Positions 1-49,616 of a stretch of 49,616 nucleotides of DNA are shown here, one piece after another; the stretch's first letter is position 1, and every line of letters begins with the position of its first letter. The stretch comes from an archaeon (GTDB lineage: Archaea; Nanobdellota; Nanobdellia; SCGC-AAA011-G17; VGLX01). The position numbers and the translations under genes were made by a program. The stretch covers positions 1-49,616 of the forward strand of contig JAZDEN010000032.1 of assembly GCA_043808805.1 (NCBI GenBank), given 5' to 3'. Below the pieces are notes generated by a model that saw only the letters and a list, made by a program, of their open reading frames with translations, had not been told where the DNA came from and did not search any database.

Positions 1-351
1 CTTACATATAAACTGATACACATCCTTAAAACTGTGCGGACTTCAGGCCTTTCTCTGCTCAATACCATCAACAGTATTCTTGACTTCGCAAGGTCGGAAG
101 ATGGCAAACTCCAATTGGCATCCGTGCCGTTCAAGCTTGAAGAAACAATCAAAGCGATGTATTTCCACCTAAACACACAATACACTCAATTAATGGGAGA
201 GGGATTCTTCCCACAAAACGGTGCAGTAAAACTGGACAGGCTCAAAAACTACAAATTAAGGCCTGCGAAGAAACCTTTTAATTTTGTAAGGCCCATAGAC
301 CTGACAATAGTACCAAAAGATTTGTTCGAGAAAGAAGTTGTGTTTTTATGA
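1..351 (+). CDS. histidine-kinase DHp-like fragment, 5' partial (open from the window edge); no ATPase part, possibly a gene remnant
   Basis: Frame 1 is open from nt 1. 'SGLSLLNTINSILDFARSEDGKLQL' resembles the second DHp helix of HisKA domains (..LL.LINDILDFSKIEAGKLEL..). The remaining ~60 aa show no N/G1/G2 ATPase boxes in any frame. Confidence 0.35.
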   Translation, partial: LTYKLIHILKTVRTSGLSLLNTINSILDFARSEDGKLQLASVPFKLEETIKAMYFHLNTQYTQLMGEGFFPQNGAVKLDRLKNYKLRPAKKPFNFVRPIDLTIVPKDLFEKEVVFL

Positions 352-355
352 TTAA

Positions 356-811
356 TTAAAATGAAATAACCTTTGGGTTAGAGAAGAATTCTTCTTTCTT
401 AAGTTCTTCAATTATGAAAAAGGTCTTCAGTTCTAAGATATTAAATGTTTCTTCAATCTTTTCAATGAAAGACTCCTGCTCCTGCATATTCTTGAAAACC
501 ACCTCAATGATGAAATCATAACCATTGTTCACTTTGTATATGGAGTTCACGTTGAAAGACTTAACCAGGTACTCTTTAAGCTGCTCCCTATGCTCCTTGT
601 TAACCTTGATTAGAATTGTAGAAACAGTCGGGAAACCAAGCTTGTGAAAGTCTATTAGGATTGTAGGCCTTTTTATCACACCACTGATATTTTCCCTTAA
701 CTTGTCAAAAATAGTGGAAACAGGGATTCTTGTCTTCTTGGACATCGAGGTTAAGGATTCTCTTCCATTGCTTCTCAGGTTTGAGATGATTAAGAGATCG
801 GATTGTTTCAT
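356..811 (-). CDS. Lrp/AsnC-family transcriptional regulator
   Basis: 151 aa. N-terminal HTH ('LTSMSKKTRIPVSTIFDKLREN') followed by an alpha/beta RAM-like C-terminal domain. Size is typical for the family. Confidence 0.75.
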   Translation of the reverse strand: MKQSDLLIISNLRSNGRESLTSMSKKTRIPVSTIFDKLRENISGVIKRPTILIDFHKLGFPTVSTILIKVNKEHREQLKEYLVKSFNVNSIYKVNNGYDFIIEVVFKNMQEQESFIEKIEETFNILELKTFFIIEELKKEEFFSNPKVISF

Positions 812-964
812 GTTATACCATCCATACTTACTATTATAAATAACTGCGGTAAAACGTAGTTAAAACATAAGTAACATTCACTTCAATAAACAGTTAACTT
901 TAACTTAACTAAAAGGTTAAATAAAAAAAGAAAACTTTATAAGATATGACCACTCCGGAGTTGC

Positions 965-1804
965 ATGGTTTCCGTACCATTATTCTTTAACAACAAAAGA
1001 ACTGTAAAATCAAATGTTGTAGAAGTACTTCTCGAGAAGAATAAACTCAGGAAAATGGAAATATTTCGAGAAATTAAAAAGAGAGGTAATAACATAACTT
1101 TCCACGCAGTTAACAAATCAGTTAACGAGCTATCTGAGATAGATGTCCTAAAAAAATATGAGAGAGAATATGGAGTGAATCCTGAATGGATAAACCAGCT
1201 ACACGACTTCACCGAAAAGGCCAGAGTAAAATTCCTTGATGAAAACGGATCAGTACTTTATGGCATAAAAGACATAAAAAGAGAGGGAGGGATAACCACA
1301 ATAACCTTTGACAACATATATGACATGGACAAATACTACAAGGGCTTACATGAATACTACTACTCAAAACTAAAGGATGATGAAATTGTTTGTTTGACTT
1401 ACGACCACCAGTGGTGGCATATACTCTACCCCCAACAGGACTATGAACTGAATGAAGCAAATAAAAAATTCTACTGTGTAAGCACTAACAATACTTCACT
1501 TGATATTGCTGGGATTAATTTCAAAAGATTACTGGGAATGAATGTTGTAATAAGGAAACAAGGAATACAATTCAGGAATACTTCTGTTTATGGAGCAGTG
1601 GTGATACAAACTATAATAGGTAAGAACCTGAATGATTCTCTTGATAATTATTTTAGTAAAACTAAAACAATACAACATTTGAGTGCATCAAAGAGGTTTG
1701 TTGATGAGGTACTTAAGAAAAAAGGGAAGGTTATACTGATAATAAATCAAAATGCGGATTTGGCTGAAGAAGTAAGAAACCATGTTCTTGGATGTTTTAG
1801 TTAG
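965..1804 (+). CDS. hypothetical protein, possible N-terminal winged helix
   Basis: 279-aa ATG ORF. 'VEVLLEKNKLRKMEIFREIKKRGNNITFHAVNKSVNEL' looks wHTH-like. Nothing else recognised. Confidence 0.5.
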   Translation: MVSVPLFFNNKRTVKSNVVEVLLEKNKLRKMEIFREIKKRGNNITFHAVNKSVNELSEIDVLKKYEREYGVNPEWINQLHDFTEKARVKFLDENGSVLYGIKDIKREGGITTITFDNIYDMDKYYKGLHEYYYSKLKDDEIVCLTYDHQWWHILYPQQDYELNEANKKFYCVSTNNTSLDIAGINFKRLLGMNVVIRKQGIQFRNTSVYGAVVIQTIIGKNLNDSLDNYFSKTKTIQHLSASKRFVDEVLKKKGKVILIINQNADLAEEVRNHVLGCFS

Positions 1805-2885
1805 GAGAAATTTGCAATACTTTTTTTAGTGTTAGGACTTTGTTACCTTTACTTAACTGTTCTGCATTCACAGAATAACTTTTTATGTATGAGAGACAGC
1901 TCTTTTTTTCTCTGGGCATATTCTCATAGTAAGATAAACTCTTTTTTTGTTTTTCTGCTCTTGCTAAATTATGATTGATTGCTTCTTCCGAAATGGGCTG
2001 TTGTTCTATCTTTTGCTTTAACCTCTCAAAATGATTTATATCCCCATAAATCAAAGTACCACTAAATAAAGGATCAGTTGTGCTTATATTAAATTTTTTA
2101 ACTAACTCCTCTAATTCGTCTTTGTTAATATGGAATATATCCAACCACCCGTTAAAGTAATTCTGAGATTTGTCATCTGAAACTATAAAAAGGTCTATAT
2201 CCTTATCAGGCTTTTGAGATCCGTACAAAATTATAAAATTAACATCCTTGAAATGACCATCATATAAATGTTTAATAATTCCGACTACCTTATTACCATC
2301 ATAGAATTTTGGGAAGCCAAGCTGTGACATAAAACCAAATCGGGTTAATCTTTGTTCTTGTTCTCTGAAATAATCTATAAGGCTTTGGTAATGCTGGAGG
2401 AAATTTCTTCTTTTTTCTTCCCAGGTACCATAGTTTCCTGTTCCTTTACATAACATTTCTTCTAACCACATAGCAAAACCTTCATAATTCCATACATTAT
2501 GTTTTGTTAAGCCTAAAGGCTGAATATTAGGATTAACTTCACCATAAAGAAACTCGTTAGGGTCTTGACTTTTTTGTAATATACCTACTAAATCTTTTCC
2601 AATTCTTGAATGTTCACAAAATAAACCATGACCAAAGAATTCATGAAACAAATTAGTGGTAAGGGTCGTGCTGTTTTCACATAAGTAAGCCTTATAACTT
2701 TGTGGAACATACACACCTGGATGTTCTTTTTTTAAATTAGGTAACGTATCCTTATTTATATGGTAGAACTCTAACCATTCTTCTTCAGAATAAATTTTAC
2801 ATTGAGATTTTTCTGTCTTTAAATTAAATTCGTAGCTGATAAAATTAGAAGCTTCATTAATAATTGAGTCTAAAGAGATTACCAT
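1797..2885 (-). CDS. hypothetical fusion protein: N-terminal HExxH (zinc-peptidase-like) region + C-terminal minimal nucleotidyltransferase domain
   Basis: 'LFHEFFGHGLF' is an HExxH motif, with 'EGFAMWLEE' downstream as a possible third ligand. 'ILYGSQKPDKDIDLFIVSDD' matches the GS..DxD pol-beta-type NTase signature. The gene is low-GC with atypical codon usage. Confidence 0.6.
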   Translation of the reverse strand: MVISLDSIINEASNFISYEFNLKTEKSQCKIYSEEEWLEFYHINKDTLPNLKKEHPGVYVPQSYKAYLCENSTTLTTNLFHEFFGHGLFCEHSRIGKDLVGILQKSQDPNEFLYGEVNPNIQPLGLTKHNVWNYEGFAMWLEEMLCKGTGNYGTWEEKRRNFLQHYQSLIDYFREQEQRLTRFGFMSQLGFPKFYDGNKVVGIIKHLYDGHFKDVNFIILYGSQKPDKDIDLFIVSDDKSQNYFNGWLDIFHINKDELEELVKKFNISTTDPLFSGTLIYGDINHFERLKQKIEQQPISEEAINHNLARAEKQKKSLSYYENMPREKKSCLSYIKSYSVNAEQLSKGNKVLTLKKVLQISPN

Positions 2886-2897
2886 GCTATAAGATAA

Positions 2898-3128
2898 TTA
2901 TTTTTTATTTATTTTGTTAAGTTCATTTATAATACTGTCAATTTCTTCTTTACTATCACAATGGAATTGAATATCTAATGATTTTTTTAAATCTGGGCTA
3001 TGTGAGGCTACATAAAAACTTATTTGCCCTTTTTCCCTTGAAATCCATTCTAGATATTCATATACCCCCTCATAGACCAAGTTCTCGTTTATGTCATAAA
3101 TTTTTATTTTCATTACTAATACTCCCAT
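2898..3128 (-). CDS. hypothetical small protein (71-76 aa)
   Basis: The ORF start overlaps the end of the upstream gene. An alternative ATG at 3113 (MKIKIYD..) lies 2 nt after the upstream stop and is preceded by GGGAG. No family recognised. Confidence 0.45.
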   Translation of the reverse strand: MGVLVMKIKIYDINENLVYEGVYEYLEWISREKGQISFYVASHSPDLKKSLDIQFHCDSKEEIDSIINELNKINKK

Positions 3129-3616
3129 GGCTTTGGAATCTTTTTCTCATCAAATGGAAACTCTATTGGTCTTTTTGTTTCTTTAAAAACTTGTGCATAA
3201 ATGTCATATGCTTCGTTCCCGTGCCTTCCTGTATAATCACCCCTACCAAACTGTAAGTGGTTATCAGGTAAACCATCATGGGCATGCCTATCTATCCTCA
3301 TTAGAGGGGTATCAATTTCTGGTCCCATGAACTTAGTTGTTCCTTTACCAAAAGATAAACCCATAGGGTCTGGAGGATCCCATTTTGGTGGAGTAAACGG
3401 TTCTGGGATTGGAGAAGACATCTCTACTTGTTTGGCATGGAACGATTCTATTTGGGCGGATATGCTTGGAGCCCAAGGACCAGAAACAGGTATAAAAACT
3501 TCTGGTGGCTCTGGTGTAAACAAAGCAATAGTTTTAGTTAAGTACTGATCTATTGTTCTTCTAGAACCTGTTTTATTTTCATAAACTAGAATTTGCTCAA
3601 GCAAGGTTTGTTGCAT
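3116..3616 (-). CDS. hypothetical Pro-rich protein (166 aa)
   Basis: The ATG at 3616 is preceded by GGAG and by a consensus BRE/TATA at 3662-3675. No motif recognised. Confidence 0.5.
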   Translation of the reverse strand: MQQTLLEQILVYENKTGSRRTIDQYLTKTIALFTPEPPEVFIPVSGPWAPSISAQIESFHAKQVEMSSPIPEPFTPPKWDPPDPMGLSFGKGTTKFMGPEIDTPLMRIDRHAHDGLPDNHLQFGRGDYTGRHGNEAYDIYAQVFKETKRPIEFPFDEKKIPKPWEY

Positions 3617-3661
3617 TCATTTCAGCTCCTATCACCTTGCCTAATTGTAATAATCACCTTC

Positions 3662-3675
3662 TATATAAACCTTTC
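3662..3675 (-). promoter_or_regulatory. archaeal BRE/TATA promoter core (GAAAGGTTTATATA on the minus strand) for the 3616->1797 operon
   Basis: The motif lies ~45 nt upstream of ATG 3616, with GGAG in between. It matches the same 14-mer found at other loci. Confidence 0.5.
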
Positions 3676-3704
3676 TATATGTAACTATTATAAAGTCGTA
3701 ATAT

Positions 3705-5865: not shown

Positions 5866-6951
5866 ATGAAAGTTGTAATACAAAAATGCGAAAGCTACGA
5901 AGATGCTGAAAGAGCAGTAGAGGAAGGACTGGAAAAACTAGGCGGGATAGAAGCCTTCATAAAAAAAGGAGATAAAGTCCTGATAAAGCCAAACCTACTC
6001 GGGGCGAGAAAACCCGAAGACTGCGTAACAACACATCCAGAAGTTGTAAGAGCAGTGATAAGACAAATCAAGAAGATAACAGACGAAATAACGATAGGAG
6101 ACTCGCCGGGATTCGTAGGCAACGTAAGAGGATGGGAGACTGTCATCGAGAAAACAGGCATGAAAAAAATAGCAGAAGAGGAAAATGTAAAACTGGAAGC
6201 ACTGAAAACACCAAAAGAGGTTGAGAGCAAGGAATGGATAATAACAAAGAAATTAATGATAGCAGAAGAGACGATGAAATACGACAAGATAGTGAACGTG
6301 GCAAAGCTGAAGACACACAGCCTGACAGTATACACCGGATGCGTAAAGAACATGTTTGGGATAATACCCGGAAGACTGAAGTCAGGAATGCACACAAAAT
6401 TTCAAGACCCATATAACTTCTCAAAAATGCTGCTTGACCTTTACATGGTTAGGAAGCCGGACCTGAACATCATTGACGGAGTCTACGGGATGGAAGGAGA
6501 CGGCCCAGCATCAGGAGACGTAAGACACTTTGGAATAATAGGACTAAGCCAGGACGCACTCGAACTCGACTACGCAATAACCAAAGACACAAAACTCGAA
6601 ATACCGATGATAAGGATAGCAGAAGAAAGAAAGATGATAATGAAAGTTGAAGTAGAAGGCGAGTTCAAAACAGAGATAAAAAAACCAAGCACAGGAATAC
6701 TAACCAGTTACGTGCTGCCGATAGCAGGCAACGTAAGAAATAAATTAACATCAAAGCCTGCGCTGACACAAGAAAGATGCACAAAATGCGAGAGCTGCTA
6801 CAAGATATGCCCTGTCAAGGCAATAAGCATGAACCCTTATCCAGAATTTGATTACTCAAAATGCATAAGATGCTACTGCTGCCATGAGATATGCCCAGAG
6901 AAAGCAATCTACCTCAAAAAAAGCATTGTCCAGAAACTACTTAGGAGATGA
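5866..6951 (+). CDS. DUF362-domain protein with C-terminal 2x[4Fe-4S] ferredoxin domain
   Basis: Two CxxCxxCxxxCP motifs ('CTKCESCYKICP', 'CIRCYCCHEICP'). The N-terminal 'GDKVLIKPNLL' region is DUF362-like. Confidence 0.75.
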   Translation: MKVVIQKCESYEDAERAVEEGLEKLGGIEAFIKKGDKVLIKPNLLGARKPEDCVTTHPEVVRAVIRQIKKITDEITIGDSPGFVGNVRGWETVIEKTGMKKIAEEENVKLEALKTPKEVESKEWIITKKLMIAEETMKYDKIVNVAKLKTHSLTVYTGCVKNMFGIIPGRLKSGMHTKFQDPYNFSKMLLDLYMVRKPDLNIIDGVYGMEGDGPASGDVRHFGIIGLSQDALELDYAITKDTKLEIPMIRIAEERKMIMKVEVEGEFKTEIKKPSTGILTSYVLPIAGNVRNKLTSKPALTQERCTKCESCYKICPVKAISMNPYPEFDYSKCIRCYCCHEICPEKAIYLKKSIVQKLLRR

Positions 6952-8652
6952 AGAGGCATGCTCATGAATCTCACTCAACAAATCGTTAACGAAAGTATAG
7001 ATCTTAACATCATGCGTGACCTTACCATCAAGAGTTCTTATTGCCAAATTCCTTGAATCAACCTCCTTATCACCAACAGTAACCATGTAATTAACCTTCC
7101 TGATCTGGGCATCACGAACCTTCTTGCCAATCGTCTCAGGCCTGTCATCAATCTCAACACGGACACCATTAGCTTCCAACTCAGCCTTAACCTCATTCGC
7201 ATACTTAACACTCCTATCAGTAACAGTCAGTATCCTGACCTGCATAGGAGCGAGCCACAAAGGCAGCTTGCCAGCATAATGCTCAAGCAGGATAGCAATG
7301 AACCTCTCAATCGAACCGAGAATAGTACGGTGGATCATCACAGGGCGGTGCTTCTTACCATCCTTCCCCTCATAAGTAAGGTCGAATTTCTCAGGCATGG
7401 CAAAATCAAGCTGGATGGTAGCGCACTGCCAGGTCCTCCCCAACGAATCCTCGATATGGAAATCAATCTTAGGACCATAAAACGCACCGTCACCAGCATT
7501 AACCTTGAACTTGATGCCAGTGTCCTTCAAGGCAGCCTTCAAGGCATCCTCAGCAGTCTTCCACATCTCAGCAGTGCCAATAGACTTCTTAGGCCTAGTC
7601 GAAAGCTCAAGATGGTAGGGAAGCTTGAAAATCTTATACATGCGATCAGCAAGATTTATGACCCTAATAACCTCATCCTTAATCTGCTCCTCCATGCAAT
7701 AGATGTGGGCATCATCCTGCGTGAAGGCACGAACGCGGAACAAGCCGTTCAAGACACCTGAGAGCTCATGCCTATGCACAAGACCCAGCTCAGCCATCCT
7801 TAATGGGAATTCACGATACGAATGAAGGCCTGTGTTGTAGATCAGAATACTTCCAGGACAGTTCATGGGCTTAACAGCATAATCCTGATTGTCAATCTTA
7901 GTGAAGTACATGTTATCCTTGTAATGATCCCAGTGGCCGGACTTCTCCCACAGCCTCCTGCTCAGGATCATAGGCGTGGAAATCTCGATGTAACCCTCCT
8001 TCTTGTGCTCCTGCCTCCAGAAGTTAATCAGCTCATTCCTGATGATCATACCCCTAGGATGGAAGAACGGAAAACCAGGACCCTCCTCATGCATGCTGAA
8101 AAGGTTAAGTTCCTTACCAAGCCTTATATGGTTACGCTTCTCAGCCTCCTCCCTGTTTTTTAAGTAAGCATCAAGGTCCTCTTTTGAACCGAAAGCAGTG
8201 CCGTAAATACGCTGCAACATGGGATTCTTGGAATCACCACGCCAGTAAGAACCGGCAATCGTAAGAAGCTTGTAGGCCTTAATCTCCTTCGTAGACTTGA
8301 CATGAGGACCCTTGCAGAGGTCATAAAAATTACCGCACTGGTATAGGGTAATCTTACCCTTCAACTCCTTGAGAAGGTCAAGCTTGTAAGGCTCATCCTT
8401 GAGCATTTTTTGTGCCTTCTGCTTTGTAACATCAATCTTCTTGAAAACCAGATTCTGGTCAATAAGCTCATCCATCTTGGTCTCAATCTTCTTCAAATCC
8501 TCAGGAGTGAAGCTCACATTGCCAAAATCATAGTAGAAACCATCCTCAATAGCCGGACCAATGCCCAATTTGGCTTTAGAGTACAGCAATTTGACAGCAT
8601 AAGCCAGTATGTGAGATGTACTGTGCCTTATCTTCTCTAACTTACCATCCAT
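6937..8652 (-). CDS. thrS: threonyl-tRNA synthetase, bacterial-type N2 editing domain, no TGS domain
   Basis: 'HSTSHILA' and 'CKGPHV' are tRNA_SAD/editing motifs. The class II core includes 'FRVRAFTQDDAHIY', and an anticodon-binding C-terminus is present. The real start is taken as the ATG at 8652 (MDGKLEKIRH..), because the upstream 63 codons of the ORF are Phe-rich junk. Confidence 0.9.
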   Translation of the reverse strand: MDGKLEKIRHSTSHILAYAVKLLYSKAKLGIGPAIEDGFYYDFGNVSFTPEDLKKIETKMDELIDQNLVFKKIDVTKQKAQKMLKDEPYKLDLLKELKGKITLYQCGNFYDLCKGPHVKSTKEIKAYKLLTIAGSYWRGDSKNPMLQRIYGTAFGSKEDLDAYLKNREEAEKRNHIRLGKELNLFSMHEEGPGFPFFHPRGMIIRNELINFWRQEHKKEGYIEISTPMILSRRLWEKSGHWDHYKDNMYFTKIDNQDYAVKPMNCPGSILIYNTGLHSYREFPLRMAELGLVHRHELSGVLNGLFRVRAFTQDDAHIYCMEEQIKDEVIRVINLADRMYKIFKLPYHLELSTRPKKSIGTAEMWKTAEDALKAALKDTGIKFKVNAGDGAFYGPKIDFHIEDSLGRTWQCATIQLDFAMPEKFDLTYEGKDGKKHRPVMIHRTILGSIERFIAILLEHYAGKLPLWLAPMQVRILTVTDRSVKYANEVKAELEANGVRVEIDDRPETIGKKVRDAQIRKVNYMVTVGDKEVDSRNLAIRTLDGKVTHDVKIYTFVNDLLSEIHEHASSSPK

Positions 8653-8912
8653 TTCACAAGAAATAGAACAAGCAAATATATAAAAGTAACGCCGAGAAAA
8701 AAAAGGCATAAAAAGGCCTGATGGGTATTTGTAAGGAATAAAAATGGTTTCAAGCCCAAAAAACACGAAAAAACAAACACAAAATGGAAAAATGATATAA
8801 AAAAACACATTACTCCGAAAAAAGACAAATAAAATGGACAAAAAGTAAAAGAAAGGTTTTAAAGCCTTCTTCGCGAAATTTCTGTGGGATAGAAAATCAA
8901 AAAGTGAATCTA

Positions 8913-19295: not shown

Positions 19296-19433
19296 ATGAA
19301 ATCCTACAAATGCTTCGATTGCGACAACATAGTCAAGATGGAATACCTCAGAAAGAAGGTAAGATGCCCCAAATGCGGGAGCAGAATTCTATACAAACAA
19401 AGATCAGCAGAAGCAAAGGTAAAAGCGAGGTAA
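19296..19433 (+). CDS. rpoP: DNA-directed RNA polymerase subunit P (Rpo12)
   Basis: The 45-aa product MKSYKCFDCDNIV..VRCPKCGSRILYKQR has a CxxC..CxxC zinc ribbon. It lies directly after L37Ae, as in the conserved archaeal cluster. Confidence 0.75.
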   Translation: MKSYKCFDCDNIVKMEYLRKKVRCPKCGSRILYKQRSAEAKVKAR

Positions 19434-19436
19434 AAA

Positions 19437-19784
19437 ATGCAACTAAACAAGGAAACAGAGGAAAAGATTGGACAGTTGCAGCTGATGGAACAGAACATGC
19501 AAAACATAATAATGCAGAAGCAAGCTTTCCAAACACAACTATTCGAGATAGACAACGCACTAAAGGAACTGGAAAAAACAAAAGATGATACGTATAAAAT
19601 AGTAGGGCCGATAATGGTAGCCACAAACAAAAAAGAACTCAAAGACGACTTACAATCAAAAAAGGAAATTCTAGAACTAAGGATAAAAAACCTGGAAAAA
19701 CAGGAAAAAAAGATAAAAGACGAGGCAACGCAGATACAAAGCGAAGTCATGAAAAAGCTCAAACAAAAGGGAGGTGGAGCCTGA
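19437..19784 (+). CDS. pfdB: prefoldin beta subunit
   Basis: 115 aa with coiled coil - beta hairpin ('YKIVGPIMV') - coiled coil. It follows L37Ae-RpoP. Confidence 0.8.
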   Translation: MQLNKETEEKIGQLQLMEQNMQNIIMQKQAFQTQLFEIDNALKELEKTKDDTYKIVGPIMVATNKKELKDDLQSKKEILELRIKNLEKQEKKIKDEATQIQSEVMKKLKQKGGGA

Positions 19785-20032
19785 TGACCCAAGAAATGGA
19801 AAACGTAATAGCACTGCTCTGCCAGATAGAAGAAGACCACAGCGTACCAAAAAACATAAGATGCAGGATAAAATGCGCAATAGACGTGCTGTCAGAAGAA
19901 GGCAAAATAGTGGGCGTACAGGCCAGCAAGGCTCTTGAAGAGCTGGAAGCGGCATCAGACGAAACTAACCTGCCAACATACACAAGAACACAGATATGGC
20001 AGGTCGTAAGCCTATTAGAGAGTACTAAATAA
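19784..20032 (+). CDS. UPF0147-family small archaeal protein
   Basis: Contains 'DHSVPKNIRCRIKCAIDVL' and 'ASDETNLPTYTRTQIWQVVSLLE', the ..D.sVPrNIR.. / ..DpN.P...Rt.iW.. pattern. Confidence 0.6.
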   Translation: MTQEMENVIALLCQIEEDHSVPKNIRCRIKCAIDVLSEEGKIVGVQASKALEELEAASDETNLPTYTRTQIWQVVSLLESTK

Positions 20033-25080: not shown

Positions 25081-25121
25081 CTCGAAGACAAACTTTCAAT
25101 AAAATAAAAAAGGTGCAAAAA

Positions 25122-29162: not shown

Positions 29163-29171
29163 CCCCTTTTT

Positions 29172-31019
29172 TCATTCCAAACCAATCCCAGACCAGAAAG
29201 GACCTGTCTTCTCAACACCCCTGTACTCGTCAGACGGAGCATACTTGCCTACGATATACTGGGGAGACCTAGTCCTCCCAAAATACGAATCCTCAATATC
29301 AGACCACTTAAAGCTGCGATAGACAGGAGAGCTGGCAAGAGAGCCCCAAGCACCTGTCATAGCGGTGTAAAGCTGGTCCTGCGCCTGAGCACCGGGCTCA
29401 GCAATCATAGGACCAATATCAGCATCCTTAATCTTCTTTATGAAATCCTTAATAGGAGCACTACCCATACCAGGAGTTAGATGCTCATCGTAATAACCAA
29501 AGTTATCCGAAATGTGAACGTGACCTATAATACCCTCCTTAGCAAGCTTCTCAGCCTCCTTAGTAACCCACTTGTTGAAACGCTTATCATAGTCATTCCT
29601 CGACTCACCCTCATCACGCTTGAAATACTTCTTCCAGGTATTCGCGTGACCAACATCAAAAGTAGCCTTGATATGGTCTTCAGAAACCCTCCTCGCCTCA
29701 GACTCTGCCATACCACGCTCCTTAACAAGACGGTCTGTCATCTCCTTCCTTGAATTAACAATAAGCTCCCTCAATTCCCTCGGATGACTGCCATACTGGC
29801 CAGACTCAGGAAGAAGATTCTCAGGAGCCACAAAAAGAGGCTTCTTCAGCTTCATCTCATCTTCGACATCATAAGCGTAAATACCCACACGAGCAAGATT
29901 CTTAGCAGACTCCTTCTTACCATACTCCTCAAGCGGGACAATCTCACCAATCTGCTGCTCGGCCATAGCCCTCTGCTGACCATAACTAACAGCAGAATCC
30001 TCCAACTGTTTGAGATGCAACTCACGAGATTTAACTGCTTTGTTAAGATATGAAATAGGATCATCCAAAAACTTCATGTACTGCTCACTATTCGGTGGGG
30101 GGGCACCGCCTTGTATCTCCTTAACAGCCTGAATAGCCTGAAACTTTGCCAACGGAGGATTCTCCTTTAACACATCGGTTATCCTCCCTCTAATCTCCTT
30201 AAGATAACCAAGCTTCTCCTTGTCCTCATTATAACTATGAGACCATCTCCTCTCCTCAGAACTAAGCCTGGTAAGCTGCTCCGCGAGAATCTTCTGCTTG
30301 TAAAACTCCTTAGCAGCAGTCTGAGAATCCTTAATCCCCTCTTCTTTCTGAAACTGACCAAAATCAACCATCTTGAACTTATACTGCTCATTCTCATATA
30401 TGGGCTCGCCCTTATGCTCACCCTCCTTATAAGTCTGCAATATAGGAATCTTCGTATCCTTTGTCAAACCAGCCTCAATCCTACCGGTACGACTGTTAAC
30501 AAGATAAACAGGGGCCTTCTCCCTCTCACCAGGATACATCTCAAACTCCTTGTACTTCTCAGAAACCTCCCTCGGGAACTCATCGCTGTGAAAAACAACA
30601 GGACCACCACCAGCAACATCAGCAGCAAAATCAATAGTACGCTCCATCTCATGGATAGAACGCTCAGCAGCCTCAGGAGTAAATGCATTACTTCTCGCAT
30701 CCAAACCCGACAAGCCAGAAAAACCAAGAGATGCGTGAGTAGAAACAACAACCTCATTTATCTTCGAAAGCTGCCTCATAGCCTCCCTCTTATCCTTACC
30801 AAACATCTCAGGAGTAGTCTGATTACCACCAAGGGAACCTTTAGCCGTACCAGTAAAACCAAGCTCAACAGCATGAGCACCAGCACGGATTCCTGCCTGC
30901 AAATTATCAAGAACATCAGCCATACCAAGATAAGAAACACCAATGTCCTTTGCACTAATATCGAGATTATCAGCTGACTGCCTGTCCAGAGAATGCCAGT
31001 AATCAGAGGTAAATGCCAT
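29172..31019 (-). CDS. xylose-isomerase-like / Endo IV-like TIM-barrel protein interrupted by a ~290-aa charged insertion
   Basis: The N-terminal part has 'AHAVELGF', 'STHASLGF' and 'VVFHSDEF'. The C-terminal part has 'FDVGHAN' and 'GHVHISDNFGYYDEHLTPGMGSAPI'. A long Lys/Glu-rich segment with no motif lies between them. Confidence 0.6.
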   Translation of the reverse strand: MAFTSDYWHSLDRQSADNLDISAKDIGVSYLGMADVLDNLQAGIRAGAHAVELGFTGTAKGSLGGNQTTPEMFGKDKREAMRQLSKINEVVVSTHASLGFSGLSGLDARSNAFTPEAAERSIHEMERTIDFAADVAGGGPVVFHSDEFPREVSEKYKEFEMYPGEREKAPVYLVNSRTGRIEAGLTKDTKIPILQTYKEGEHKGEPIYENEQYKFKMVDFGQFQKEEGIKDSQTAAKEFYKQKILAEQLTRLSSEERRWSHSYNEDKEKLGYLKEIRGRITDVLKENPPLAKFQAIQAVKEIQGGAPPPNSEQYMKFLDDPISYLNKAVKSRELHLKQLEDSAVSYGQQRAMAEQQIGEIVPLEEYGKKESAKNLARVGIYAYDVEDEMKLKKPLFVAPENLLPESGQYGSHPRELRELIVNSRKEMTDRLVKERGMAESEARRVSEDHIKATFDVGHANTWKKYFKRDEGESRNDYDKRFNKWVTKEAEKLAKEGIIGHVHISDNFGYYDEHLTPGMGSAPIKDFIKKIKDADIGPMIAEPGAQAQDQLYTAMTGAWGSLASSPVYRSFKWSDIEDSYFGRTRSPQYIVGKYAPSDEYRGVEKTGPFWSGIGLE

Positions 31020-31057
31020 GTTAAAAAATATATTTCAGAGTTTTATTAACTTTTCCA

Positions 31058-32488
31058 TTACCAACTCAACATACTATGAGTCTTCTTGTAAACATCATAA
31101 AGCGTGTAAACATGCTCAGCAACAACCTTAGCAGCGATATCCTCCTGCTCACGCTCATAATAAGACAACTTCTTCTTATTCCCTGAATCCCACTTAAGAC
31201 CGCCAAACAAATCACCAAAACCCTTTATAACAGATGTGAAAGGGCTTATAACATCCTTCATGTAAAAAGTACCTGAAGACTTCTTATCTTCAGCATCCTT
31301 GACAATCTCACCAGCCTCAATAAGATAATTCTTCAACTCATCACCCAGAGAATCAAGAGAAGAGTCAAGAGACCTCAACAACTCCAGGTCCTCAAGCTCC
31401 TTACCCTTCTTGTAACCCTCAAGCTCTTCAGGAGTCAGAACAAAACCCTGAATGGTTATCTCAGTACGGCCCGCGTGAACAGCAGCCCTCTGAAATTCCT
31501 TCTGGAAAGCCATCTCAGGAAGCGTAACAAACCTAAACAAGACACGAATACAGGGAATCTTCTCAGTGAACTCACGCTCAACCATACCCCTATCAGTCAG
31601 CAACTCATAAGTCTTCTTGTAAGCCATCAACTCAAGCTGAATAAGACTGGTCTCAAAGGCAGAAACCATCTCAGGAGCGTTGCTCTGCTGCAACTCCAAC
31701 CTCTGGATGTTCCTCAAAAAAGGCTTAACCCACTTTATGTACATCCTCATAGACTGATAATGCTGGTTCAAGGCCTTCAACCTGAAATTCTTACCCCACT
31801 TCAACTCCTGGTAGGTCTTCTCCTTCCAGATGTAATACTCAGTAAGCTTATGCTTCAAAACACTACGAACACGAGAGTTGATACCCTCATCCTTCAACGA
31901 ATTAACAGCCCTATCAACACCAGCGCTGCCGTTGATAGGGTTAATCTTGAAAAAAAGATCGGGAATAATCACAAAACCGAGCTTACGAGACAAACCAAAA
32001 ATAGATGTTGCATTCTCAGCACCCCCCTCAACAACAGTAGTCCAGATATTCTTCAAAGCAATCTCAGCAGCCTCATCACCCTTAAGGCTCTTCACATAAT
32101 ACTCTAACCTCTCATCCATAATCCTAAGCTCACGAACCATCTGAAAAACACTCTTAGTCATACTACCAATAGTGGCCAGATACTGGGAGACACGCTCCTG
32201 CTGACGCTGCTTCCTCTCCTCAGCAGCACCAAAAAAAGTAGACATCTCAGTCGCAGAAAAAACATCAGAGGTCTTCTCAACCACATAACCAAGACCGTTC
32301 TCATGCTGCAGGAAATTAACAATCCAGAAATATGAAGGCTCAGCAGACGAGCCCATCTGCTCAACAATAAGCTTCTGCTGCTTACTGGGCTTTATATCGG
32401 AACCCAAAACCCTAGGCTTCTTAGGAGCCTCCTCACCAGGCCCCAATACACTGCCCAAAGCATTCTTGAATAATTTACTCTTAGCCAT
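31058..32488 (-). CDS. hypothetical protein (476 aa), apparently mostly helical
   Basis: The start is taken at ATG 32488 (MAKSKLFKNALG..), preceded by AGAGGT and a TATA-like 'AAAGATTTATAAAT'. No family recognised. Confidence 0.55.
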   Translation of the reverse strand: MAKSKLFKNALGSVLGPGEEAPKKPRVLGSDIKPSKQQKLIVEQMGSSAEPSYFWIVNFLQHENGLGYVVEKTSDVFSATEMSTFFGAAEERKQRQQERVSQYLATIGSMTKSVFQMVRELRIMDERLEYYVKSLKGDEAAEIALKNIWTTVVEGGAENATSIFGLSRKLGFVIIPDLFFKINPINGSAGVDRAVNSLKDEGINSRVRSVLKHKLTEYYIWKEKTYQELKWGKNFRLKALNQHYQSMRMYIKWVKPFLRNIQRLELQQSNAPEMVSAFETSLIQLELMAYKKTYELLTDRGMVEREFTEKIPCIRVLFRFVTLPEMAFQKEFQRAAVHAGRTEITIQGFVLTPEELEGYKKGKELEDLELLRSLDSSLDSLGDELKNYLIEAGEIVKDAEDKKSSGTFYMKDVISPFTSVIKGFGDLFGGLKWDSGNKKKLSYYEREQEDIAAKVVAEHVYTLYDVYKKTHSMLSW

Positions 32489-32579
32489 GTTACCTCTTTT
32501 TATTAGGTAGATGAATCGATAATTTATAAATCTTTTCACACAGAAAAACTTATTAACCATATAAGGCACTCAACAGAAT

Positions 32580-37148: not shown

Positions 37149-37856
37149 TTAATGTTTTTTAATCTTCAAAACATCCTTGTAAACAGGACACAGCGCAAAG
37201 TCAGAGCCCCGGCCATAAAACCTCTTCGCATGCTCAACGAGCAAAGCATGATATTCCTGATAAACAACCAAATCCTTCCTTATACCCTTCTCAAAAAACC
37301 CCTTAACCTCATCGTAACCAGCATCCCTGTCTACAAGACCCAAATTCGAGAACACCCTCTTTGTGTAAGCATCCACAACAAAGGTTGGGACGTTAAATGC
37401 ATAAAGCAGCATGGAATCTGCTGTCTCCTCACCAATCCCCCAAACAGACAACAACTCATCACGAGAAGGCACCTTTCCATCGAGATTTATGTAAAAATCA
37501 GAGAACAACCTAAGCTTCTTAGCCTTCTGGTTGAAATAGCCAGCAGGCCTTATTGCTTTGCAAAGCTTTTTTTCATCAATGCCCCTCATTGATAAGGGAG
37601 TCAACGCACCTATCGACTTTAAATTCCTAATCGCCTTCTCAGTCTGGGCCCAACTCGTATTCTGCGTCAGGACGGCACCAACACAGATCTCAAACCTCTC
37701 AGAATCATTTCTGGGAAATGAATAATCACCAGGATGATAGCCTGAAGATGAACCAGTCTTAGTGGGATTAACACCTTTATGGCTGGCCAGAGGCCACCAA
37801 CCCTGAGGCCCATAACAGGAATAAAGAAACTTGTAGACTTTCATGACATCATTCAT
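37149..37856 (-). CDS. endonuclease III-related HhH-GPD protein (COG2231-like)
   Basis: Contains 'AVLTQNTSWAQTEKAIRNLK' and 'LLSVWGIGEETADSMLLYAFNVPTFVVDAYTKRV'. The start is taken at ATG 37856 to avoid overlapping the upstream gene. Confidence 0.7.
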   Translation of the reverse strand: MNDVMKVYKFLYSCYGPQGWWPLASHKGVNPTKTGSSSGYHPGDYSFPRNDSERFEICVGAVLTQNTSWAQTEKAIRNLKSIGALTPLSMRGIDEKKLCKAIRPAGYFNQKAKKLRLFSDFYINLDGKVPSRDELLSVWGIGEETADSMLLYAFNVPTFVVDAYTKRVFSNLGLVDRDAGYDEVKGFFEKGIRKDLVVYQEYHALLVEHAKRFYGRGSDFALCPVYKDVLKIKKH

Positions 37857-37893
37857 AAGAAAAAGAGGATAGGGCACTTGTAAATAAAACTTT

Positions 37894-38868
37894 TCAAATA
37901 CTAGGACCTTTTGGGATGTGAACCTTAGTCCCTTTAGGCACGAAATCACTTCTGATTGCAGGGTTGACCATCTTCAGGTCGGTAACCTTCACATTGTGCA
38001 ACTTAGCAACCTTATTCAGAGGAACATCCTTACCAGCAACATACTCCCCAACCCTCAAACTCGACATAGGCTTTGCCTTGCTGAAATTAATGTTAAACCT
38101 GGAAGGATCAGAGAATATCTGCATCTTAGCGGCAACCTGAAGTATGTAGTCACGAGACTCATAAGGGATCATCGCATTCTTAACAATGTCCGCATGACCC
38201 AGAATTTTACTAAGATTATCCAAAGTCCAGGTAGGACCAGCGTTATAAGCTATAAGCCCAACAACATGATCCTTGAAATAATCTATGTACTTCTTCATGT
38301 ACTTACTCGAAGCCACTATAGCCTTAGGATCAAAACGCTCATCCACGTTGTGGTTAACGGTCAGTTCAACCTCACGGGCAGCAACAGGCATGAGACCTCC
38401 AAGACCTGCAGCACCCTTATGGGACTCCGCATGGGTATTACCCTCAGACTCCTGAGCAACATAAGCCTTAATGAAGTTGATATCATAACCAGTCTCCCTG
38501 CTAGCCTGCTCAAAATAGTCATCATAAGCAGACAGCTTTGAAAGAATCAACTCAAGCTCCTTCCTGGAATCCTCTGAACCAACCAACTTCTCAATCCTGG
38601 CCTTAACCTTAGAACCCAAATTATGCTTTGTTATACCTCTATTAAACGTCCTGTCAACCCTGTTCTCAAGAGTCTCCTCCAGCCTGTATACAGCATTCTT
38701 AGGGTTGAAGGTAAGAGCACTTGAAGGATGTATAGAGCTGGGGAGTATTAGAGTTGCTGCAAACAGAGGGATAACAAGATACTTTTTAAAAGAGCTAGAA
38801 CTATTCTTTTCTTCTACATGATTGTTACGCCAGTATGACGCACACCCATTAAAATCACTTCGAACCAT
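37894..38868 (-). CDS. membrane-anchored lytic transglycosylase (SLT domain) with C-terminal LysM
   Basis: 'AQESEGNTHAESHKGAAGLGGLMP' and 'IAYNAGPT' are SLT family 1 motifs. The C-terminal 'YVAGKDVPLNKVAKLHNVKVTDLKMVNP....GTKVHIP' is LysM-like. An N-terminal TM is present. Confidence 0.75.
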   Translation of the reverse strand: MVRSDFNGCASYWRNNHVEEKNSSSSFKKYLVIPLFAATLILPSSIHPSSALTFNPKNAVYRLEETLENRVDRTFNRGITKHNLGSKVKARIEKLVGSEDSRKELELILSKLSAYDDYFEQASRETGYDINFIKAYVAQESEGNTHAESHKGAAGLGGLMPVAAREVELTVNHNVDERFDPKAIVASSKYMKKYIDYFKDHVVGLIAYNAGPTWTLDNLSKILGHADIVKNAMIPYESRDYILQVAAKMQIFSDPSRFNINFSKAKPMSSLRVGEYVAGKDVPLNKVAKLHNVKVTDLKMVNPAIRSDFVPKGTKVHIPKGPSI

Positions 38869-41132: not shown

Positions 41133-41182
41133 CCCTATTTTCACAGATAACCATACAAAAACCAATGATTATCTAGGAGGTT

Positions 41183-41530
41183 TTGAAAATGGAAACATCA
41201 AAAGAAATTGTCGAAAAAGCCCTCGAACTCGTCGAGATGGCAAAAACATCAGGCAAGCTGAAGAAGGGCGTCAACGAAGTAACAAAAGCAGTCGAAAGAG
41301 GAACTGCAAAAATAGTTTTAATCGCAAAAGACGTAAACCCACCAGAGATAGTCATGCACCTAGGACCGCTCTGCAAAGAAAAAGGCATAAAACTGATTTC
41401 TGTACAGAAAAGAGAAGAACTAGGAACAGCCGCAGGACTACCAGTACCTACAGTTGCAGTCGCAGTCGTAGAAGAGGGTGACGGAAAGAAACTGCTAAAA
41501 GAAATAATGGAAAAGGCAAAAGATGAGTGA
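41183..41530 (+). CDS. rpl7ae: ribosomal protein eL8 / L7Ae
   Basis: '[31 protein letters not shown]'. An AGGAGG RBS precedes the ATG. Confidence 0.9.
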
Positions 41531-41840
41531 AGACAAAAAATCTGAACAGAAAACTGAACAACCCCAGAAGGAACAGAAAAGAGACAGAAAGCCACAGCAG
41601 CAAGAAACCAAATCAGAAAAGGCAACATTCTCAGAAGCATACCCTGCCATAGTTGAAGAGATAGTAGGAAGGACAGGAATGAGAGGAGAGATAACACAAG
41701 TCAGGTGCAAGATAATGACAGGAAGAGATGCAGGAAAGATAATCACAAGAAACGTCAAAGGCCCTGTAAGGGAAAAAGACACACTCATGCTAAGAGAAAC
41801 AGAAATAGAAGCAAGAAAAATGACACCAGGAAGGAAGTAA
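41523..41840 (+). CDS. rps28e: ribosomal protein eS28 with ~35-aa N-terminal Lys/Gln/Glu-rich extension
   Basis: '[57 protein letters not shown]'. The ATG overlaps the end of L7Ae, and no in-frame ATG/GTG/TTG lies nearer the core. Confidence 0.85.
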
Positions 41841-41841
41841 G

Positions 41842-45973: not shown

Positions 45974-46027
45974 AAAGCTTTTTATATAAGAAAAACAAAA
46001 GAAATTATCATAAAGAGGTGATAAAAA

Positions 46028-46201: not shown

Positions 46202-46209
46202 GATAGAAA

Positions 46210-46764: not shown

Positions 46765-46767
46765 TCC

Positions 46768-46780
46768 TTTTTATTTTTTT
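46768..46780 (+). terminator. oligo-T terminator after the pilin-like gene
   Basis: 'TTTTTATTTTTTT' lies 4 nt after the stop at 46764. Confidence 0.45.
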
Positions 46781-47252
46781 AGAATTTATCCTCAGACTTA
46801 TCTTCTTCGCCTTCCCTTCTAATAACCTTGACAGAATCAAGCTTAACAGTAATCGGAATGGGAATGGCTGATTCTAACAACTCGACAACGACCTCGTCCT
46901 TCTGGGTATCAATCCTTGAGACCTTAGCCTTCTCCCTCTTGAAAGGCCCTGAAATTATTTCAACAATGTCATTCTTCTGGATGTTAACTTCCCTCTTAAC
47001 CTGCTCAAGCATGTGCTCAATCTCAGCATACTGAACTTCCTTTGGAAGAAGACCACGAGCATAAGGAATACCCTGGAATGCCTCCTCAGCAATCTCCCTA
47101 TTCTTCGCCTCCATGAAGATGTAACCACGAAGACCATGAGGCCTTATCAGACAATAAACATCAAGACCTTTCTTCTTCGCATTCTCATAGACAAAATCCA
47201 GAACCTGCTCCTCACGGTTAGCAGTAGTCCTCAAAGCAAATATGGGATTCAT
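46779..47252 (-). CDS. spt5: transcription elongation factor Spt5 (NusG homologue)
   Basis: The NGN domain begins 'IFALRTTANREEQV', and the KOW motif is 'DIVEIISGPFKREKAKV'. It follows secE. Confidence 0.85.
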   Translation of the reverse strand: MNPIFALRTTANREEQVLDFVYENAKKKGLDVYCLIRPHGLRGYIFMEAKNREIAEEAFQGIPYARGLLPKEVQYAEIEHMLEQVKREVNIQKNDIVEIISGPFKREKAKVSRIDTQKDEVVVELLESAIPIPITVKLDSVKVIRREGEEDKSEDKF

Positions 47253-47431
47253 CTCAAAAGATCTCCAATAATGAATATAACAAAGCCTATGAAACCAATT
47301 ATCAAAATGCCAATACCGGAGACTTTGACGATAGCCTTGAACTCTTCCTTACCAGGCTTCTTGGTAACGCGAAGAACCCTGCCGCTCTCGGACAAGAACT
47401 CCTTAAACTTAATCATATAGTCTTTCATCAT
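47249..47431 (-). CDS. secE: preprotein translocase SecE / Sec61-gamma
   Basis: 60 aa. Contains 'RVLRVTKKPGKEEF' followed by a single TM. The stop overlaps the spt5 start. Confidence 0.75.
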   Translation of the reverse strand: MMKDYMIKFKEFLSESGRVLRVTKKPGKEEFKAIVKVSGIGILIIGFIGFVIFIIGDLLR

Positions 47432-47480
47432 ATTAAAAGCCGATAAGAAAAAAATTGCGAATTTAGGTATTTAAAGGTTT

Positions 47481-48608
47481 CTATTCAACGAACTCAATCC
47501 CAAGCTGAGAGCCTATCTCAGTCTTCTCTTCCCTAACATGCTTCTTAGGGCCGAAAATCTGCGGAGAGTTAACACCAGTAACGATAAGCATAGCCCTCAA
47601 AGACTTGCCAAGGTCTTCAGATATCATAGCACCCCAGATGATGTTAGCATCCTCATCAAGCTTCTCAGACACGGACTCAACAACCCTCTTAGCCTCTTCC
47701 AGGGTCATGTCAGGACCGCCAGAAACGTTAATCAACGCACCATTAGCACCGGTAATATCAACATCAAGCAAGGGATTATTCAAGGCCTTCTCAACAGCCT
47801 CCATAGCCCTGTTCTCAGTATCAGACTCACCAATACCAATCATAGCCACACCACCCTTACCCATAACAGCCTTGATGTCAGCAAAATCAAGGTTAACAAG
47901 GCCAGTCTTGGTAACAAGATCAGCAATACCCTTAACAGCATTCGTTAATATTTCATCAGCAACCTTGAAGGCAGTCTGCAAAGGCAGGTCAGGAGCTAGT
48001 TCCAATAACTTATCGTTAGGAATAACAATCAAAGTATCAACAATATCCTCCAACCTCTCCAAGCCAAGAATAGCGTTCTCATAACGCCTCTGACCCTCAA
48101 CCTCAAAAGGCAGTGTGACAACAGCAACAGTCAAGGCGCCGGTCTTCTTAGCAATGTCAGCAATCACAGAAGAGGCACCAGTACCAGTACCACCACCCAA
48201 ACCACAGGTAATGAAAACCATGTCAGCACCCAACAACTTCTGTTTGATATCATGCTCAGACTCCTTAGCAGCCTCCTCACCAACATGAGGGATGGAACCA
48301 GCACCCATACCATGAGTCAGGTCCTTACCCAGAAGGACTTTCTCATCAGCACTGGTGTAAAGCAGGTCCTGGGCGTCAGTGTTCATAGCGATGGTCTCAG
48401 CACCACCAATGCCAACCTCAGAAATACGATTAATCGTGTTATTGCCAGCACCACCCACACCAACAACCTTAATCTTAGCCTTCTGCTTCGTAAGCAGCTC
48501 CTCAAGCTCCTCATCAATAGAGGCAAATTTTCTGGGCCCCTGAAGCTTGTTAAAAGCCTCACTCTTGTTAATGTTTAAGTCGGTGTTGCTTGCAAAAGAA
48601 TCCATCAT
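47481..48608 (-). CDS. ftsZ: cell-division GTPase FtsZ
   Basis: Contains '[10 protein letters not shown]', the tubulin signature 'GLGGGTGTG', and 'NLDFADI'. Confidence 0.95.
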
Positions 48609-48691
48609 CTCACTCCTTTTCTTTAACCTCTTTATGCCTGAACAAAATTTAGAATATGTTCTATAAATACTTATCTATACTCTAAAAGTTA

Positions 48692-49405
48692 TTATTCTTG
48701 AGCAGTGTCAGAAGCGGGTTTCTTAGGCTTTTTCTCAGAAGACTCCTTCTTCTCAGGTTTCTTGGCTTCAGGCTGCTTAAACTCAAAAGATTTTATGGTG
48801 GGAATAATCTTTTTCAGGTTCTCAGACAAGCCCTTTGCAATGATATCAGGCAGGTCCAATGGAATCTTAGCAAGGCCCTCCTCAATCTTTATGTCAGGAG
48901 ACATGTTGAAATGCAACTCAAAGAAAGACTTCAGCTTCTCCAGGTCATCATCAACCTTCCTAATAATCTCAACATCATATACCAAATCATGACCTGAATA
49001 AGGATGATTGAAATCGACCAATGTTCTACCGCCACTAACACTCCTTATAACACCAACAGAATTGTTAACAGTAACCTGCAAGCCCGGAAAAGGATTTATT
49101 TTCTGCTGGATGAAAACAGAAGTGGGAACAAGACGCATCATCTTAGGATTCTTCCTGCCAAAACCCCTATCCATAGGAACCTCAACCGTGTAAACCTTGC
49201 CAACCTCCTTGCCAGCCAGAGAATCATCAAGACCCTTAACAACATCACCGCTGCCAACACATATTATAACAGGCTTAAAAGTAAGCTTAGGATTGAAGTC
49301 ATGCTCCTTGGCAACCTTCGCATCAGTAAGGTCAAAGATCTGATTATTATCCTTAAACTTACCAACATAATTAATCTCAATGAAATCGTGTAACTTAACC
49401 TGCAT
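48692..49405 (-). CDS. FKBP-type peptidyl-prolyl cis-trans isomerase (long archaeal type, Lys/Glu-rich tail)
   Basis: Contains 'DFIEINYVGKFKDNNQIFD', 'DVVKGLDDSLAGKEVG' and 'NHPYSGHDLVYDVEI'. The start is taken at ATG 49405. Confidence 0.8.
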   Translation of the reverse strand: MQVKLHDFIEINYVGKFKDNNQIFDLTDAKVAKEHDFNPKLTFKPVIICVGSGDVVKGLDDSLAGKEVGKVYTVEVPMDRGFGRKNPKMMRLVPTSVFIQQKINPFPGLQVTVNNSVGVIRSVSGGRTLVDFNHPYSGHDLVYDVEIIRKVDDDLEKLKSFFELHFNMSPDIKIEEGLAKIPLDLPDIIAKGLSENLKKIIPTIKSFEFKQPEAKKPEKKESSEKKPKKPASDTAQE

Positions 49406-49461
49406 AAAATAAAAAGCTATAAGCAAAGTATTTAAAGCTTTTTATGCAAAAATTCTAGTAT

Positions 49462-49584
49462 GCGGGAGTGCCGGAGTGGCCAAACGGGATAGCCTCAAGA
49501 TAATTGAAAAATGAGCCCAAAAGGCGATGATATAAGAAAGCTATTGGCTTAGTGCCTACGCAGGTTCGAACCCTGTCTCCCGCA
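49462..49584 (+). tRNA. tRNA-Leu(CAA) with a 39-nt intron at the canonical 37/38 position (about 49500-49538)
   Basis: Acceptor GCGGGAG/CTCCCGC plus discriminator A. 3-bp D-stem CCG/CGG. Anticodon stem ATAGC/GCTAT with loop CTCAAG[intron]A. Long variable arm TGGCTTAGTGCCTAC. T-arm GCAGG-TTCGAAC-CCTGT. Confidence 0.75.
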
Positions 49585-49616
49585 ATAAAAAACATGAAAG
49601 TCAAAAAAGTTCTGAT

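Follow-up and report, generated by a model that had tools for sequence, protein, structure and literature searches.

The chromosome of a Woesearchaeota-like archaeon carries an extreme asymmetry between A and T that stays with one DNA strand whatever the orientation of the genes, and this asymmetry belongs to the whole chromosome of the genus and not to one replichore. We consider it rather probable that a replication mode which is effectively unidirectional, or in another way asymmetric between the strands, explains this one-strand A/T asymmetry. The stretch studied here, called the window in the following, is the complete 49,616-nucleotide contig JAZDEN010000032.1 (C32), which is part of a metagenome-assembled genome (MAG) of 790 kb in 64 contigs with a completeness of 76% (G000). 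It was compared with three congeners (G001-G003) and about 35 further genomes, all from the same Woesearchaeales-like order; orthologues of the G000 ppsA gene at 80% identity come from MAGs that bear the label Candidatus Woesearchaeota or Nanoarchaeota, which places this uncultured organism among the small DPANN archaea of that order. Genes were called by amino-acid composition, and calling by the longest open reading frame (ORF) was dropped because it chose antisense shadows over the genes for L11, prefoldin and L7Ae.

Beyond the first 3.65 kb of the window (3650-49616) the plus strand is A-rich and T-poor at silent sites, and genes of both orientations show it. The third-position AT skew (AT3) of the 33 plus-strand genes in this segment has a median of +0.76 (range +0.18 to +0.83), that of the 19 minus-strand genes a median of -0.69 (range -0.81 to -0.43), and the two ranges are disjoint (Mann-Whitney p = 2.7e-9). 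Pooled third positions are A.484, C.247, G.192 and T.077 in the plus genes and A.083, C.158, G.302 and T.457 in the minus genes, and at four-fold degenerate sites the window has A.57 and T.10 in plus genes compared with A.07 and T.64 in minus genes. An earlier sequence-only reading of this DNA had stated that synonymous codon choice flips with gene orientation over the whole window and had proposed a per-gene count of third positions as the check; in this count the difference is significant and the flip is confirmed beyond position 3,650, whereas it does not extend to the first 3.65 kb, where AT3 is about 0. The codon strings quoted in that reading for ppsA and ftsZ were both located, at 25176-25202 on the plus and at 48441-48470 on the minus strand. 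From 4 kb on, every 2-kb bin has a plus-strand bulk AT skew above zero (0.11 to 0.50), with values of 0.3-0.5 at plus-gene stretches and 0.11-0.19 at minus-gene stretches. One strand sign is kept throughout 3,650-49,616, in agreement with the earlier statement that no skew switch lies inside the window.

The same AT3 split is followed by 17 genes of the window for which Pfam matches or orthologues establish the strand. Seven of them lie on the plus strand with AT3 values of +0.50 to +0.81, namely those for a DUF362 protein, a response regulator, a nucleoside-phosphorylase-like protein, ribosomal protein L11 (18285-18926; Pfam PF03946 and PF00298; AT3 +0.76), a prefoldin subunit (19437-19784; PF01920; +0.78), ppsA (25113-27464; +0.77; 80% identical orthologues in congeners) and ribosomal protein L7Ae (41183-41530; PF01248; +0.76). 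The minus-strand genes with such support range from -0.49 to -0.81 and comprise threonyl-tRNA synthetase (ThrRS, 6937-8841; PF00587, PF03129 and PF07973; -0.73), a methyltransferase, an AP_endonuc_2 barrel protein, an Obg-like GTPase, an HhH-GPD base-excision glycosylase (37149-37949; PF00730; -0.49), SLT and PUA proteins, Spt5/NusG (46779-47252; PF03439; -0.55), FtsZ (47481-48608; PF00091 and PF12327; -0.81) and an FKBP-type peptidyl-prolyl isomerase (48692-49426; PF22199 and PF00254; -0.67).

Across G000 the asymmetry is one of A versus T. Genes on the A-rich strand have A.556, C.163, G.172 and T.108 at their four-fold sites, those on the T-rich strand A.112, C.177, G.139 and T.571, with AT skews of +0.67 and -0.67, respectively, and G about equal to C. 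Read along the A-rich strand, all four-fold sites together are A.56, T.11, G.17 and C.15. The description of silent plus-strand sites as A+C-rich in the sequence-only reading therefore has to be replaced, as the four-fold contrast is between A and T (.56 vs.11) and C is not enriched. The impression of A/C-ending versus G/T-ending codons arises because in two-fold codons the avoidance of T leaves only C and the avoidance of A leaves only G. Codons of the type NNR end in A in 66% of cases in A-strand genes and in 21% in T-strand genes, and codons of the type NNY end in T in 22% and 64%, respectively; examples of codon fractions in A-strand/T-strand genes are AAA.67/.20, GGA.58/.09, GGT.07/.58 and ATA.80/.26. 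The strand component of the skew is about 0.11 at codon position 1 and about 0.03 at position 2, and T, I, Q, E and K are commoner in proteins from the A-rich strand, S, V, D and F in those from the T-rich strand. In bulk, the A-rich strand contains 36.1% A, 22.2% T, 22.2% C and 19.5% G. Short intergenic spacers share the strand sign in all four arrangements of flanking genes, with an orientation component of 0.07.

Another conceivable cause is selection on translation, expression level or purine loading of the mRNA, or a transcription-coupled bias in mutation or repair. A small component is indeed linked to orientation: A and G are enriched at codon position 1 of the sense strand in both gene classes, and the spacers have their orientation component of 0.07. 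As an explanation of the skew itself we regard such a cause as very improbable and already contradicted. The sense-strand skew at four-fold sites reverses with orientation at equal size, and the spacers keep their strand sign in every flanking arrangement. Furthermore, the ribosomal-protein genes lie on the opposite strand to the genes for FtsZ, Spt5 and ThrRS and use opposite codons, and one tRNA pool cannot favour both. The sequence-only reading was thus right that expression does not explain the flip, and the data support a strand-fixed mutational asymmetry rather than an effect of expression or transcription.

The asymmetry extends over the whole genome. The skew scan covered 790 kb of G000, 732 kb of the about 800 kb of G001, including two 100-kb contigs, and 1.0 Mb of G003, and for genome-wide counts every contig was turned so that the A-rich strand is up. 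Each of the 64 contigs of G000 carries a single skew sign (0 reversals), no reversal was found in the scanned part of G001, and among 1,346 reciprocal-best orthologue pairs of the three congeners only 1 has strong sense-strand skews of opposite sign. Synteny among the three congeners joins their contigs into about 6 linkage groups, and no native reversal was detected across about 2.5 Mb of these genomes. An artefact of assembly or binning, by which two organisms or chimeric contigs would be mixed, might be suspected from the printed orientation of the G000 contigs (43 of 64 have the A-rich strand as plus) and from the weak skew of contigs C2, C17 and C45. We regard its probability as practically negligible, as one and the same contig carries plus genes interspersed with minus genes under a common strand sign, the same pattern is found in congeners that were independently assembled by other studies, and the proteins are intact and conserved. 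The excess of A-rich plus strands is probably due to the assembler taking the lexicographically smaller strand and is not biology.

Two clean AT-skew reversals were found in G003, in contig C5 at about 16.9 kb (within 16.7-17.1 kb; L033) and in contig C8 at about 8.7 kb (within 8.3-9.2 kb; L036). Contig C15 of G000 unites the left side of the C8 junction with the right side of the C5 junction, contig C5 of G000 unites the remaining two sides, and both have a uniform skew. The G003 reversals are therefore the reciprocal junctions of one inversion. As G001 has the same gene order as G000 at these junctions, likewise with a uniform skew, the inversion is derived in G003. The inverted genes keep their ancestral sense-strand skew, so that the event is recent, unless repeats have possibly caused the assembly to flip here. 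At a distance of about 1 kb from the C8 junction, with one gene between, there is an IS605 OrfB/TnpB gene. Apparent reversals in G003 contigs C11 and C16 were rejected as low-GC3 foreign islands (GC3, GC content at third positions).

A comparison with the position of the Orc1/Cdc6 gene and of origin recognition boxes (ORB), as suggested by the sequence-only reading, gave no sign switch either. There is one Cdc6_C match per genome, and cdc6 is the first gene of a cdc6-DP1-DP2 (PolD) operon. The conserved intergenic region of about 450 bp upstream of cdc6 contains inverted TTCCTATGGAA/TTCCATAGGAA repeats, C/G-strings (CCCCTACCCC) and an AT-rich core, and is a candidate oriC (L092:9684-10172 in G001, L094:4265-4698 in G004 and L076:7062-7546 in G003). 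In this layout the region resembles an archaeal origin with ORB and duplex unwinding element. In G001 the strong AT3 sign persists across the cdc6 locus, over flanks of about 48 kb and 50 kb, and in G004 the sign is also the same on both sides.

Outside the genus, a closed genome from another family of the order (G007, one contig of 736.8 kb) was sampled as 3-kb tRNA-gene loci and one 20-kb stretch. The GC3 skew of its plus strand is negative at 25 of 25 sampled sites (-0.12 to -0.56, typically about -0.3; loci L145-L174), equally in loci with plus and with minus genes and on both sides of cdc6. The same sampling revealed no strand-fixed skew in the near-complete genomes G039 and G040; therefore the sampling method does not invent one. 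In a 20-kb sample of G037 (L020, C2:62000-81999) the four-fold GC skew is +0.55 or -0.65 depending on orientation. Strong strand-fixed skews on the G/C axis are thus present in other families of the order. Hence, the order holds one-signed or strong strand skews of different flavours, of which this genus has the extreme A/T version.

A replicative cause is favoured because, along an entire chromosome, the two strands can be told apart only by replication or by some other process that acts on one strand as a whole. Under such a mode both strands would keep a constant replicative role around all or nearly all of the circle, for instance if copying ran one way from the Orc1/Cdc6-ORB locus or proceeded in a strand-displacement or rolling-circle-like manner. 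The T-rich strand would then gather net C>T, A>G and purine-to-pyrimidine changes (e.g. G>T). As a result of the asymmetry, codons of A-strand genes end in A, or in C if the synonymous choice is limited to C and T, and codons of T-strand genes end in T, or in G if it is limited to A and G. Incoming DNA would start unskewed and be driven slowly toward the skew. At two-fold sites of the A-rich strand A/(A+G) is.66 and T/(T+C) is.22, which is an about 7-fold asymmetry of the transition balance and is mirrored in genes of the other strand. Read from composition and not from observed substitutions, this points to an excess of C>T and A>G on the T-rich strand. An additional purine-to-pyrimidine bias on the T-rich strand is suggested because four-fold sites of the A-rich strand are about 73% purine. 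The spectrum is compatible with damage of the uracil, hypoxanthine and 8-oxoguanine type if one strand spends more time in the single-stranded state. Along contigs of 50-100 kb no obvious skew gradient was seen.

Exposure of one strand could also come from a process that runs alongside bidirectional replication, such as rolling-circle-like copying or strand transfer between cells, by which one strand would be repeatedly single-stranded. This would account for the single sign and for the lack of a reversal at a canonical-looking origin with inverted ORB-like repeats, the spectrum is as expected if the T-rich strand is damaged while single-stranded, and rolling-circle-type skews have been reported in some bacterial genomes (10.1101/808410). 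We consider it quite improbable. No nickase, relaxase or Rep gene was seen, though none was searched for, and no gradient is evident along the 100-kb contigs.

Several observations weigh against strand-asymmetric replication of the whole chromosome. The AT skew of spacers is only about 0.17 compared with 0.67 at four-fold sites, which we attribute to dense constraint by promoters and terminators. G007 is known from 25 sites only and its skew lies on the G/C axis. The contig of G000 ends 298 bp upstream of cdc6. In the candidate origin, moreover, inverted ORB-like repeats flank the AT-rich core, as is usual for origins that fire in both directions. If contigs break at random, the probability that two switches are hidden is about 0.30 for G000, 0.19 for G001 and 0.12 for G003, and the joint probability for all three is about 0.007 only if the three genomes are independent; regions of origin and terminus might be systematically hard to assemble. 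In addition, the cues for fork direction conflict (see below), and no unusual replication or repair gene content marks the genus, in which PolD, PolB, EndoV and HhH-GPD are present.

A rival reading is bidirectional replication with replichores of the Lobry or Borrelia type, in which every contig would lie within one replichore and the reversals would fall into assembly gaps, perhaps with an origin away from cdc6. Such a model predicts a strand-fixed skew at neutral sites locally, the MAGs are fragmented enough to miss both switches with a probability of 0.12-0.30 per genome, the break of the G000 contig lies right in the region upstream of cdc6, and some Euryarchaeota as well as one DPANN archaeon do have peaked skews (10.1101/808410). 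Nevertheless, we consider it unlikely. About 2.5 Mb of three congeners are without a native reversal, the only ones being the inversion junctions, the sign is constant across the sole cdc6/ORB-like locus in G001 and G004, and the closed G007 shows a single sign at its 25 sampled sites. For a switch to hide in all three congeners at once, synteny leaves no more than about 6 linkage groups. The term Borrelia-like in the sequence-only reading implies two replichores with reversals at origin and terminus, and in this sense it is not supported.

For the direction of the fork that reading had stated that, if the keto rule applies, the minus strand of the window leads and the fork travels from right to left; our data do not confirm this. 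Two-fold sites make the T-rich strand rich in G and T, and at four-fold sites G is about equal to C. Deamination of the T-rich strand, the minus strand of the window, would account for the two-fold sites and in this respect agree with it as the leading strand. The orientation of the rRNA and cdc6-PolD operons points the other way. The sense strand of the rRNA operon is the A-rich strand in G001 and G003 and the G/T-rich strand in G007, and that of the cdc6-PolD operon is the A-rich strand in this genus; if the T-rich strand is leading, both operons are therefore head-on to the fork. The tRNA genes (8/4, 7/5 and 8/7 by strand) are too few and too balanced to serve as a cue. Gene counts on the two strands of G000 are 479 and 403, which are approximate as hydrophobic proteins may be under-called. 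Conserved gene orientation, considered as a means of carrying fork polarity over from G007, showed no association between the genus and G007 (5/9 vs 6/6, p = 0.69).

Candidate causes in the enzyme repertoire were rejected. Loss of a repair gene does not account for the skew, as most genomes of the order yielded no UDG-family gene whatever their skew, EndoV is present throughout the family and HhH-GPD is nearly universal. EndoV was found in 7 of 7 genomes of the family (G000-G006) compared with 5 of 34 other searched genomes of the order. An unusual polymerase set was also rejected, as PolD is present and PolB is present in congeners; PolB was not found in G000, which is a 76%-complete MAG.

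Weak or absent skew in accessory DNA is what a mutational pressure on incoming DNA predicts. Contigs C17 (38 kb), C45 (1-20 kb) and C2 (8 kb) of G000 have a higher GC content, an AT skew of 0.1-0.3 and almost no orthologues in congeners, and in C17 and C45 (1-20 kb) the T-rich strand is the sense strand of nearly all genes; all three are probably partly ameliorated acquired DNA. The beginning of the window (1-3650) is a low-GC islet without skew (GC 0.34, AT3 about 0, 6 genes). Three of its genes have orthologues in G003 contig C14 (16.9-19.5 kb) and one in G001 contig C7, with 59-89% identity, and these orthologues are also unskewed. The islet looks like a mobile or recently exchanged element.

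The long stop-free antisense ORFs, which the sequence-only reading had seen as a side effect of the codon bias, are indeed about doubled. In the window 53 antisense ORFs of at least 100 aa were observed compared with 22.2 +/- 3.7 when the same proteins were recoded using synonymous codon frequencies made symmetric between the strands, and in the whole of G000 545 compared with about 280. The 53 antisense ORFs, all within 3650-49616, also exceed the number obtained by recoding with the codon usage of each orientation (37.5 +/- 4.2), and therefore codon order or context adds to the excess. Three such ORFs on the minus strand were rejected as genes: one of 222 aa opposite L11 (18251-18919), without Pfam match and with an excess of T at position 2, one of 178 aa opposite prefoldin (19304-19840) and one of 174 aa opposite L7Ae (41173-41697), the latter two being shadows of Pfam-backed plus frames. 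Gene callers are liable to pick such shadows.

Two further observations concern individual genes of the window. In G007, although it is distant, synteny is kept (L028, 12.4-17.7 kb) with the block of three minus-strand genes at 28323-32569, which encode 279 aa, an AP_endonuc_2-like barrel of 615 aa, and 503 aa. In some relatives (G013:C8, G025:C34, G009:C62 and G015:C26) the ppsA matches are split into 2-3 pieces within a single open frame of 1,000-1,300 aa, which suggests an intein or a large insertion.

The closest known parallel in cells comes from bacteria belonging to the candidate phyla radiation (CPR). Members of the order UBA1400 (Microgenomates Ch65, Collierbacteria, Beckwithbacteria) have a one-signed GC skew along their entire chromosome (Kadnikov et al., 2020; PMC7143001), for which unidirectional theta replication or an adjacent origin and terminus has been proposed (PMC7143001). 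As here, these are small-genome, probably symbiotic and uncultured lineages with a large strand disparity and no reversal, their genes are split nearly evenly between the strands (449/389 there, 479/403 here), and the trait is common to relatives and not to more distant kin. In contrast to these bacteria with DnaA-type initiation, the genus studied here is archaeal, with Orc1/Cdc6, MCM-type machinery, PolD and PolB. The disparity in UBA1400 is between G and C (15% vs 30%) without AT skew, whereas here A and T differ, with 36% vs 22% in bulk composition and with 56% vs 11% if four-fold sites are counted, and the bacterial case was shown on closed genomes, ours on fragmented MAGs and a sampled closed relative.

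Mitochondrial genomes offer a second comparison. The heavy and light strands of vertebrate mitochondria (PMC3269012) have an asymmetry of comparable magnitude that is one-signed over the whole molecule, genes on opposite strands differ in codons and amino acids, and one strand bears the two-fold signature of C>T and A>G. Unlike our case, this is a 16-kb organelle genome with known heavy- and light-strand origins (OH/OL) and a gradient tied to the time of single-stranded exposure, whereas no obvious gradient was seen along the contigs here. Furthermore, its axis is G+T versus A+C, while here the lack of a G/C contrast at four-fold sites calls for an added purine-to-pyrimidine bias. The mitochondrial genome of Galdieria sulphuraria (PMC4316638) is similar in its extreme one-signed skew and purine-rich strand. 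Its GC skew is 0.74 and its AT skew 0.26, and unidirectional or rolling-circle replication has been inferred (PMC4316638); with a gene-strand skew of 0.88, coding and strand effects are confounded there, whereas genes are balanced here.

The asymmetry shares with Lobry-type skews (Borrelia, Buchnera) and with the peaked skews of Euryarchaeota that it is a mutational effect at neutral sites, independent of gene orientation, and that it alters codons and amino acids. Lobry-type skews reverse at origin and terminus and consist mainly of G over C with a smaller excess of T over A; here the axis is A/T and there is no native reversal, even at the cdc6/ORB-like locus. The third-position skews of Lobry-type bacteria and Euryarchaeota are several-fold weaker than 0.67. 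Peaked skews have been found in 18 of 224 archaea, all Euryarchaeota, and separately in one DPANN archaeon (10.1101/808410), and a survey from 2026, which does not mention DPANN, Nanoarchaeota or AT skew, describes archaeal skews as weak, attributes them to gene orientation and translation and concludes that archaea hardly produce mutational skews specific to a strand (PMC12999951). We found no published report of a one-signed or extreme A/T-type skew in archaea, including Woesearchaeota and DPANN. That the asymmetry is unusual for an archaeon, as stated in the sequence-only reading, is in line with the weak skews published so far (PMC12999951). The strand bias of this genus opposes the current archaeal picture, at a strength otherwise seen in animal mitochondria.

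The fuller proposal is that in this genus, and probably in further Woesearchaeota-like DPANN archaea beyond it, the chromosome of about 1 Mb is copied unidirectionally or in a strand-displacement-like manner from a canonical Orc1/Cdc6-ORB origin, and that the exposed strand is thereby driven to a mitochondrion-level A/T asymmetry. We put it forward tentatively, as nearly an even call that leans slightly to doubt. In genomes of this kind codon usage and composition-based binning, the detection of horizontal gene transfer and phylogeny are biased by gene orientation. The loss of skew marks recently acquired DNA as well as recent inversions and thus provides an internal clock for genome change. 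Furthermore, as no reversal is seen even at the cdc6 locus, metagenomic read depth by itself becomes enough to test how DPANN archaea replicate. If the proposal is true, unidirectional or strand-displacement-like replication would be documented for the first time on the chromosome of a cellular archaeon, as a direct counter-example to the general survey of archaeal skews (PMC12999951).

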